In this document: positions 31,710 to 33,869 of the stretch, in pieces
Layout of the letters: each line of letters opens with the position of its first letter
How positions within the stretch are numbered: the stretch's first letter is position 1
Source of the DNA: Escherichia coli
Lineage (GTDB): Bacteria > Pseudomonadota > Gammaproteobacteria > Enterobacterales > Enterobacteriaceae
Assembly: GCF_003334815.1 (NCBI RefSeq)
Contig: NZ_QOWO01000004.1
DNA: 64,000 nt
Reading direction: 5' to 3' (one strand)
Notes under the pieces: generated by a model
Told to the model about the DNA's origin: nothing
Seen by the model: the letters and a program-made list of their open reading frames with translations, nothing else
The model's database searches: none
Made by a program: the position numbers and the translations under genes

Positions 31710-32891
31710 ATGCATAACTCCCCCGCAGTCTCCAGCGCGAAATCGTTTGACCTGACCTCGACGGCGTTTTTAATCGTTGCCTTTCTCACCGGTATTGCGG
31801 GCGCTCTGCAAACCCCGACACTCAGTATTTTTCTTACCGATGAAGTACATGCCCGTCCGGCGATGGTGGGATTCTTCTTTACCGGCAGCGCTGTCATTGG
31901 GATTCTGGTAAGTCAGTTTCTCGCCGGGCGCTCTGATAAGCGCGGCGATCGCAAATCGCTGATTGTCTTTTGCTGCCTGTTAGGCGTGCTGGCCTGCACC
32001 CTTTTTGCCTGGAATCGCAACTACTTTGTTTTGCTATTCGTTGGCGTCTTTCTTAGCAGCTTTGGCTCGACCGCTAACCCGCAAATGTTTGCCCTTGCCC
32101 GTGAACATGCCGACAAAACCGGACGTGAGGCGGTGATGTTCAGCTCTTTTTTACGCGCTCAGGTTTCACTGGCATGGGTCATTGGCCCACCGCTGGCTTA
32201 TGCCTTAGCGATGGGTTTCAGCTTTACGGTAATGTATCTGAGCGCAGCGGTAGCGTTTATTGTTTGCGGTGTGATGGTGTGGCTGTTTTTACCGTCGATG
32301 CAAAAAGAGCTTCCGCTGGCGACCGGCACGATCGAAGCGCCGCGCCGTAACCGTCGCGATACGCTGCTGCTGTTTGTCATTTGTACATTGATGTGGGGCT
32401 CGAACAGCCTGTACATCATCAACATGCCGCTATTTATTATCAACGAACTGCATCTTCCCGAGAAACTGGCCGGTGTGATGATGGGGACCGCCGCCGGGCT
32501 GGAAATCCCGACGATGTTGATTGCCGGATATTTCGCCAAACGTCTGGGTAAGCGTTTCTTAATGCGCGTTGCTGCCGTGGGTGGCGTCTGTTTTTACGCA
32601 GGAATGCTGATGGCGCATTCACCTGTCATTCTGTTGGGCTTGCAGCTGCTAAATGCTATTTTTATTGGCATTCTGGGCGGCATCGGGATGCTCTATTTTC
32701 AGGATCTGATGCCCGGTCAGGCGGGTTCAGCCACCACGCTCTATACCAACACTTCGCGCGTGGGCTGGATCATCGCAGGATCAGTGGCGGGCATCGTCGC
32801 CGAGATCTGGAATTATCACGCTGTGTTCTGGTTTGCGATGGTGATGATTATCGCCACTCTGTTTTGCTTACTGCGGATTAAAGATGTTTAA
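31710..32891 (+). CDS. setB: Sugar efflux transporter B (MFS)
   Basis: 393-aa 12-TM ORF, divergent from fruB. Confidence 0.9.
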
Positions 32892-33142
32892 GGCGCGGTC
32901 AGCATTTCCAGATCGATAAGCCAGGTCATGGCCTGCTGACGCGAGTTACCGCACATTTCAGCGCTGGCTTGTAAGCCTGCACAGACTTTCGGTCGCAGTG
33001 GCGAGGTGAAAATTTTACAGCGTTGCTGTTCATCAAGCTGAATGCAGGGCGTATTGGCGGGCTTGCCATCTGGCATACCGGGAATAGGGCTGGAAATTGA
33101 AGGGGCAGTGCAACACGCCCCGCAACCCGGACGGCATTCCAT
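32888..33142 (-). CDS. yeiW: Cysteine-rich UPF0153 small protein
   Basis: ORF 32888..33274 (128 aa); annotated-length 84-aa product starts at the internal Met ([11 protein letters not shown]...); start uncertain. Confidence 0.7.
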
Positions 33143-33296
33143 ACGTTGTTCTCTTAAGGTTAACCACCGGATTGATGAGCGCGCACAGTACCACCTTTTT
33201 TGCACCAGCAAAAGTGCGAATACCACTTGCCCGAAAGGCCCGTCGCGAGTACTTTGTCGCGATATTTTTGACATTTTCGACTACAGGAATTTTTCG

Positions 33297-33869
33297 ATGC
33301 CAAGAGCGAACGAAATTAAAAAAGGTATGGTACTGAATTACAACGGCAAACTGCTGCTGGTTAAGGATATTGATATTCAGTCGCCCACTGCCCGCGGTGC
33401 CGCTACGCTGTACAAAATGCGTTTTTCTGATGTCCGTACCGGGCTGAAAGTAGAAGAGCGTTTCAAAGGTGATGATATCGTTGACACCGTGACGCTGACC
33501 CGCCGTTACGTTGACTTCTCCTATGTCGATGGCAACGAATATGTCTTTATGGATAAAGAAGACTATACCCCGTATACCTTCACCAAAGATCAGATTGAAG
33601 AAGAGTTGCTGTTTATGCCAGAGGGCGGCATGCCGGACATGCAGGTGCTGACCTGGGACGGTCAACTGCTGGCGCTTGAGCTGCCGCAGACCGTTGATCT
33701 GGAAATCGTTGAAACCGCACCAGGCATCAAAGGGGCATCTGCCAGCGCCCGTAACAAACCGGCGACATTGAGCACTGGTCTGGTGATTCAGGTACCAGAA
33801 TACTTAAGCCCGGGCGAAAAAATTCGTATCCATATCGAAGAACGCCGTTATATGGGGCGTGCTGACTAA
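33297..33869 (+). CDS. yeiP: Elongation factor P-like protein
   Basis: ORF 33042..33869; Met at 33297 gives 190 aa ([10 protein letters not shown]...) matching the EF-P-like protein. Confidence 0.9.

Follow-up and report, generated by a model that had tools for sequence, protein, structure and literature searches.

The modal length of gene overlaps is 4 nt, and E. coli has 58 convergent overlaps whose length distribution jumps at 4 nt (PMC2174442). The signature of this 4-nt peak in convergent overlaps is a YTAR tetramer: CTAA, TTAA, CTAG, or TTAG (PMC2174442). Another described class is the convergent excludon, of which 165 were reported in MG1655 using ExcludonFinder; the pair setB and yeiW is among them, with transcript overlap in at least 50% of 58 transcriptomes (PMC12288877). 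At the other end of yeiW, published work has addressed promoter activity. yeiW mRNA was found to be induced 9-fold by vanillin, and the 154-bp spacer between yeiW and yeiP (33296 down to 33143), cloned in front of the g10 ribosome binding site and GFP, gave strong fluorescence and a 4.3-fold induction by vanillin (PMC5291986). The literature on YeiW itself consists of this vanillin induction and a presumed metal-binding role, and our literature search on YkgJ/UPF0153 returned nothing mechanistic.

We analysed a 64,000-nucleotide stretch of E. coli DNA (the window), in which the region from 31.7 to 33.9 kb carries fruB-setB-yeiW-yeiP(efpL)-yeiQ in a K-12-like arrangement. A 1-kb query spanning the setB-yeiW overlap and the yeiW start matched 5414 of 5426 complete E. 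coli genomes at 95-100% identity, with K-12 W3110 identical at 100%. The RefSeq coordinates for setB, yeiW, and yeiP map exactly onto the window positions (Table 1). In RefSeq, yeiW is a 255-bp gene (WP_000389030.1, "YkgJ family cysteine cluster protein") in the short form at the window coordinates, and when we compared this K-12 record with yeiW of the window, the coordinates, the sequence and the neighbours setB and yeiP/efpL were identical, with no difference found. The annotated start is an in-frame internal ATG at 33142-33140, which yields 84 aa with eight cysteines. As the original prediction had noted, the frame stays open for 128 codons, 44 beyond the 84-aa product, and it continues to an ATG at 33274-33272; a TAG lies three codons farther upstream. 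The original prediction was also right that a long form would run antisense over the yeiP promoter and come close to the yeiP start, since only 22 bp (33275-33296) separate ATG 33274 from the yeiP ATG at 33297. A long-form yeiW annotation was absent from every RefSeq record sampled, and no annotated feature was present inside the yeiW-yeiP spacer in the sampled E. coli genomes. In one strain, Res13-Lact-EB12-05 (H1, NZ_CP062908.1), an IS1A element splits yeiP at about window positions 33300-33600, and yeiP is annotated twice around the transposase.

Table 1. Genes and sequence elements of the setB-yeiW-yeiP region, in window coordinates.
Feature	Coordinates	Strand	Basis
setB CDS, sugar efflux transporter, 393 aa, C-terminus ...IKDV	31710..32891	+	ORF list; RefSeq of identical K-12 record
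Palindromic TTAA holding both stop codons, 4-nt tail-to-tail overlap	32888..32891		sequence; 27/35 loci
yeiW CDS, short form, 84 aa + stop, YkgJ/CxxCxxCC cysteine-cluster protein	32888..33142	-	RefSeq, Pfam, homologues, pN/pS
44 open codons in frame with yeiW, very probably a non-coding part of the divergent promoter spacer	33143..33274	-	orthologue stops, pN/pS, spacer length, no family match
Shine-Dalgarno-like AAGAGA, 7 nt before the short ATG	33150..33155	-	-2.9 kcal/mol; AAGAGA/AGAGAG conserved across genera
Predicted yeiW extended -10, TGgTACTGT	33185..33193	-	block TGnTAnnGTGC nearly invariant in 20 enterobacterial spacers
Putative yeiP (efpL) core promoter, -35 TTGCCC, 17-nt spacer, -10 TACTTT	-35 33227-33232; -10 33250-33255	+	GGCAAG, TAnTTT invariant
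Palindrome TCGCGA-N8-TCGCGA bracketing the putative yeiP -10	33243..33262		invariant in spacer alignment
yeiP Shine-Dalgarno AGGA	33285-33288	+	sequence, anti-SD duplex
yeiP/efpL CDS, EF-P-like protein, 190 aa	33297..33869	+	sequence, ORF list, RefSeq

The two ATGs define two candidate products. One reading is that yeiW consists of 84 codons from ATG 33142; the other is a 128-aa YeiW initiated at ATG 33274, made either as the principal form or as a minor isoform specific to the species, whose mRNA would begin within the yeiP 5' region. The longer product is favoured by a frame that is open, and an ATG that is present, in essentially all complete E. coli genomes, and it has been chosen by some automated callers. 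The original prediction had held that the true start could not be decided from sequence. We found instead that the domain boundary, the lengths of homologues, the pattern of substitutions and the conserved AAGAGA all favour ATG 33142. A Pfam search gave a single match, PF03692 (i-Evalue 4e-07), in which model positions 1-72 of 85 aligned with long-form residues 46-104, so that the domain begins at residue 2 of the short form. Residues 1-44 of the extension had no Pfam or NCBIfam match, which counts against the 128-aa form. The 128-aa form, searched against 5.8 billion proteins, gave 3477 matches. Among the best 120 of these 3477, nearly all (more than 100) were 84 aa long, in genera from Escherichia to Erwinia, Pantoea, and Tatumella, and the alignments of these 84-aa homologues were confined to the C-terminal 66% of the query. 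A few longer homologues among the same 120 came from other genera (96, 107, and 112 aa) and had unrelated N-termini. In an alignment of 20 genera, Met1 of the short form and all eight cysteines were invariant.

The frame upstream of the conserved ATG was followed at 80 loci fetched from one-genome-per-species contigs. The original prediction had proposed that stop codons in the upstream 44 codons of orthologues would support the short form, and such stops were found in the nearest relatives: a TGA 16 codons upstream of the short ATG in E. albertii, a TAA 15 codons upstream in a cryptic Escherichia locus (L002), and a stop 4 codons upstream in three Citrobacter species, all in frame. Almost all other fetched loci had stops or unrelated sequence upstream of the yeiW ATG. 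Spacer length pointed the same way. At the 40 loci with a divergent yeiP neighbour the yeiW-yeiP spacer ranged from 121 to 271 nt, and its length differed from 154 by a number that is not a multiple of three in 23 of the 40. The locus L002 (NZ_JAATUR010000027.1) is deposited as "E. coli strain SCPM-O-B-8794" and shares only ~93% identity with the window across 4 kb, which suggests that it probably belongs to a cryptic Escherichia clade. Consistent with this, its stop-bearing spacer haplotype was absent from the 5426 complete E. coli genomes.

Substitution patterns separated the two parts of the open frame. Over the 84 codons of the core, pN/pS was 0.03-0.13 (0.03 against L002 and 0.10 against E. 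albertii), and the differences fell at third codon positions in 10 of 11 cases against L002 and in 16 of 20 against E. albertii. Over the 44-codon extension, pN/pS was 0.96 against L002; against E. albertii, 4 non-synonymous and 0 synonymous changes left the ratio undefined. Within the extension, differences were scattered across the three codon positions, and each of the two comparisons included one nonsense change. The extension thus shows no purifying selection as codons, and in relatives we did not find it as an open and selected frame, given the stops, a pN/pS of about 1 and the shifts in spacer length. At the nucleotide level, divergence was 3-4% in the extension versus 17-26% at synonymous sites of the core. 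Because the extension is more conserved than synonymous sites of the core, it looks like regulatory DNA.

The signals for ribosome binding also differed between the two ATGs. The anti-Shine-Dalgarno duplex was weak at the short ATG (-2.9 kcal/mol), compared with +0.9 kcal/mol at ATG 33274, where we detected no Shine-Dalgarno sequence. A Shine-Dalgarno-like motif preceded the short ATG in 34 of 40 loci. The supplementary data of TetRP and TRAINSPOTTER contained no YeiW initiation-site or N-terminal entry. The choice of ATG 33142 rests on this comparative evidence together with one promoter-reporter experiment, the vanillin reporter described above. In that experiment the spacer drives GFP in the direction of yeiW, which places a yeiW-directed promoter within the spacer. 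The cloned fragment includes only 22 bp upstream of the long ATG, and with the promoter wholly inside the fragment, the transcription start would be expected downstream of the long ATG. A transcript encoding the 128-aa form would instead need to start inside yeiP or within 22 bp of the yeiP ATG. No divergent transcript overlap has been reported for yeiW-yeiP, which is absent from the 16 divergent excludons described in MG1655 (PMC12288877).

We considered whether chance could account for the open upstream frame in E. coli. When the 132 nt of the extension were subjected to mononucleotide shuffling, 8.5% of shuffles were stop-free, and in the 154-bp spacer stops are missing altogether from three of the five remaining frames. 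At least 44 open codons preceded the conserved ATG at 18 of the 80 loci, about 10 of them Enterobacterales, in unrelated sequence. The open frame is therefore no more than chance would give, with an expectation of roughly 9-20%, which counts against the 128-aa form. In 5373 of 5414 E. coli genomes the spacer showed 99% identity or more, and a 55-mer around codon 29 was exact in 5320 of 5413. With so little variation in the spacer, a stop-free frame that arose by accident in the ancestor would persist. The 128-codon frame was intact in every E. coli sensu stricto genome examined, including six fetched variants with single SNPs in the spacer. Among these six variants and the near-invariant spacer, polymorphism within E. 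coli supplied no variant that discriminates coding from non-coding sequence in the extension.

Taken together, we conclude with high confidence that yeiW comprises 84 codons from ATG 33142, that the upstream 44 codons are untranslated control DNA shared with yeiP, and that the tail-to-tail TTAA is inherited; translation from ATG 33274 as a 128-aa protein, whether as main or minor isoform, is very improbable. GenBank and metagenome protein sets include yeiW forms of 128 and 151-155 aa (e.g. P0001-P0006). Longest-ORF calls of 128-153 aa, from metagenomes and from older entries, are artefacts. A separate case is a 127-aa protein (P0007) from a 5.17-Mb NCBI genome, in which a frameshift in yeiW puts out-of-frame sequence, joined to the upstream open frame, in place of the cysteine-cluster N-terminus; this is probably a pseudogene or a sequencing error.

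The 154-bp spacer itself contains recognizable blocks. An alignment of 20 spacers revealed sharply conserved blocks parted by stretches rich in insertions and deletions, and these blocks resemble promoter and Shine-Dalgarno elements rather than conserved codons. On the yeiP side, the blocks were the yeiP start with its Shine-Dalgarno sequence ACAGGA, the TCGCGA palindrome around TAnTTT, and CTTGCC 17 nt upstream of TAnTTT. A sigma-70 consensus scan of 32500-33700 returned no strong site, so promoter elements were assigned from conservation across genera instead. Read in this way, CTTGCC and TAnTTT form a putative -35/-10 pair for yeiP. Published efpL reporters spanned -33/+33, a 66-bp fragment ending at 33296 (PMC11611912). 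This geometry puts the yeiP +1 at 33264, which fits the putative -35/-10 pair, and with +1 at 33264 the long yeiW ATG would face positions +9 to +11 of the yeiP leader and so fall within the stretch that encodes the yeiP 5' UTR. The palindrome could be an operator, or the GC-rich discriminator of a growth-rate-controlled translation-factor promoter. A terminator scan also flagged it, as a T-run follows; folded as RNA, it gave -10.3 kcal/mol (z = -1.8). No RNA family in Rfam matched 32700-33450 at E <= 1.

On the yeiW side, the nearly invariant extended -10 block would place the yeiW transcription start probably near 33176-33180, a position that we infer from conservation. This block also bears on a third possibility for the yeiW start, namely initiation at one of the in-frame non-ATG codons GTG 33226, TTG 33211, or GTG 33205. 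These codons exist and have weak Shine-Dalgarno-like pairing (-2.6 to -3.4 kcal/mol). All of them lie upstream of the conserved extended -10, the sequence around them is interrupted by stops or cannot be aligned as codons in other genera, and homologues begin at the invariant M1. We give a non-ATG start almost no chance.

The model that we favour for this end of the locus is as follows. yeiW would be translated from ATG 33142-33140 as a YkgJ-family protein (Pfam CxxCxxCC) with eight invariant cysteines. The DNA from 33143 to 33274 would remain untranslated, as part of a 154-bp divergent control region common to yeiW and yeiP/efpL. One strand of this spacer would carry the yeiP -35, -10, transcription start and Shine-Dalgarno sequence, and the opposite strand would carry the yeiW promoter, probably with the extended -10 listed in Table 1, and the Shine-Dalgarno-like AAGAGA. 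The frame would be stop-free in E. coli by chance and retained through the near-invariance of the spacer. Of this model, our results show the gene boundaries and the pattern of conservation, and the promoter activity of the spacer is shown by the reporter. The divergent pairing of yeiW with yeiP(efpL) was kept in 40 fetched loci across Enterobacterales (L002-L067). In Serratia and Hafnia, yeiP lies ~1.6 kb from yeiW, and no yeiP occurs within 3 kb of the YeiW homologues of Betaproteobacteria. A functional tie between YeiW and EfpL is conceivable.

The protein encoded by the short frame is small and rich in cysteine. Its cysteines C3, C7, C10, C11, C33, C42, C54, and C64 are the eight that were invariant across the 20 genera. 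The N-terminal cluster ends in CC, and its first spacing is CxxxC instead of CxxC. No NCBIfam HMM matched YeiW at E <= 0.01, and a profile search of the PDB found no solved relative. An AlphaFold2 model was of low confidence, with a mean pLDDT of 48.9.

At its other end, yeiW meets setB tail to tail. On the plus strand, setB ends in AAA GAT GTT TAA with its stop at 32889-32891; on the minus strand, yeiW ends in ACC GCG CCT TAA, with its stop read from 32890 down to 32888. The two stop codons have two bases in common (32889-32890) and the genes overlap by 4 nt, in agreement with the original prediction that a shared TTAA supplies both stops. The 4-nt overlap was present in 27 of the 35 fetched loci in which setB adjoins yeiW, in genera that include Escherichia, Citrobacter, Pseudocitrobacter, Enterobacter, Kluyvera, Superficieibacter, Cedecea, Pseudescherichia, Rahnella, and Serratia. 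Its only variation was TTAA versus CTAA in the yeiW orientation, which corresponds to a setB stop of TAA versus TAG. The other eight loci had gaps of 1-50 nt or a different arrangement or overlap, and both genes were retained. We conclude that the 4-nt overlap is real and conserved, and that the arrangement is common and already described.

A terminator scan, folding and the structure of orthologues revealed no conserved terminator hairpin after either stop at this junction. The junction leaves no room between the genes for a terminator, so both transcripts must continue into the neighbouring gene, in keeping with the listing of the pair as a convergent excludon. We also examined a 53-nt hairpin after the setB stop (32893-32945, plus strand; -24.5 kcal/mol for an 81-nt fold, z = -1.9) as an embedded setB terminator. 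This candidate was rejected, as 22 orthologues gave neither a consensus structure nor covariation. The inverted repeat at 32893-32945 is specific to E. coli, with arms of ~10 nt and a 30-nt loop, and lies within the yeiW coding sequence.

Two explanations could account for the persistence of the overlap. In our preferred reading, setB and yeiW would simply abut tail to tail, with TTAA providing both stops, the commonest form of convergent overlap, inherited across Enterobacterales. The other is that selection maintains the overlap: as an excludon, its convergent transcription would make expression of setB exclude that of yeiW and vice versa, and the overlap would not be a neutral by-product of abutting genes. 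Conservation of the junction across families, the transcript overlap reported in MG1655, and the lack of a conserved terminator hairpin near the junction are all in line with selection. Passive conservation is expected as well, however, since the two genes have only third-codon and stop positions in common and the C-terminus of each protein is under constraint. In addition, the eight loci with gaps or another overlap keep both genes, and 4-nt overlaps have been attributed largely to neutral stop-codon mutation (PMC2174442). We therefore consider a selected excludon unlikely, and favour passive inheritance of the abutting stops; any regulatory effect of the overlap would be an inference.

Some E. 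coli assemblies (L088:1501-1959 and L089:1225-1683) carry TGAA in place of TTAA in the setB orientation, a single substitution that destroys both stops. In these variants the added length is 24 aa for YeiW and 16 aa for SetB, and the two coding sequences overlap in antisense over 124 nt. The 152-aa YeiW proteins in databases are explained by assemblies with this change. The shared-stop junction is thus a tidy example of one substitution that lengthens two proteins together, and it opens no new question. A more adventurous proposal is that E. coli sensu stricto makes a low-level 14-kDa YeiW isoform from antisense yeiP 5' transcripts, and/or that a selected excludon couples SetB sugar efflux to vanillin- or stress-induced YeiW. 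We regard this proposal as very improbable. If it were true, natural TTAA-to-TGAA variants, in which both proteins are lengthened, would be informative alleles.

With these results, we conclude that yeiW is an ordinary locus that is already correctly annotated, with an overlap that is already known. The practical gain is in annotation hygiene: the RefSeq model of an 84-aa YeiW is confirmed, and the longer calls are set aside as artefacts. The 154 bp between yeiW and yeiP are regulatory DNA that is tightly conserved, which bears on studies of efpL expression and on vanillin sensors built on the yeiW promoter.

The locus can be compared with three described classes. The first is that of spurious longest-ORF N-terminal extensions. 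The long form of yeiW resembles these in having an upstream in-frame ATG without a Shine-Dalgarno sequence, conservation or domain content. It was picked by metagenome callers and in an older GenBank record, and we see no real difference between it and other longest-ORF artefacts. The second class is the convergent excludon (PMC12288877), with which setB-yeiW shares the overlapping transcripts reported in MG1655; the functional hallmark of excludons is mutual repression, which for this pair would be a prediction. The third is the 4-nt convergent overlap (Lillo and Krakauer 2007, PMC2174442). setB-yeiW fits the definition of a 4-nt convergent stop-stop overlap, as both stops lie in one tetramer on opposite strands, and like other members of the class it holds them in a single YTAR tetramer. 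Unlike the description of the class as a whole, the setB-yeiW junction is shown here to be old, extending from Escherichia to Rahnella and Serratia with only a switch between TTAA and CTAA.
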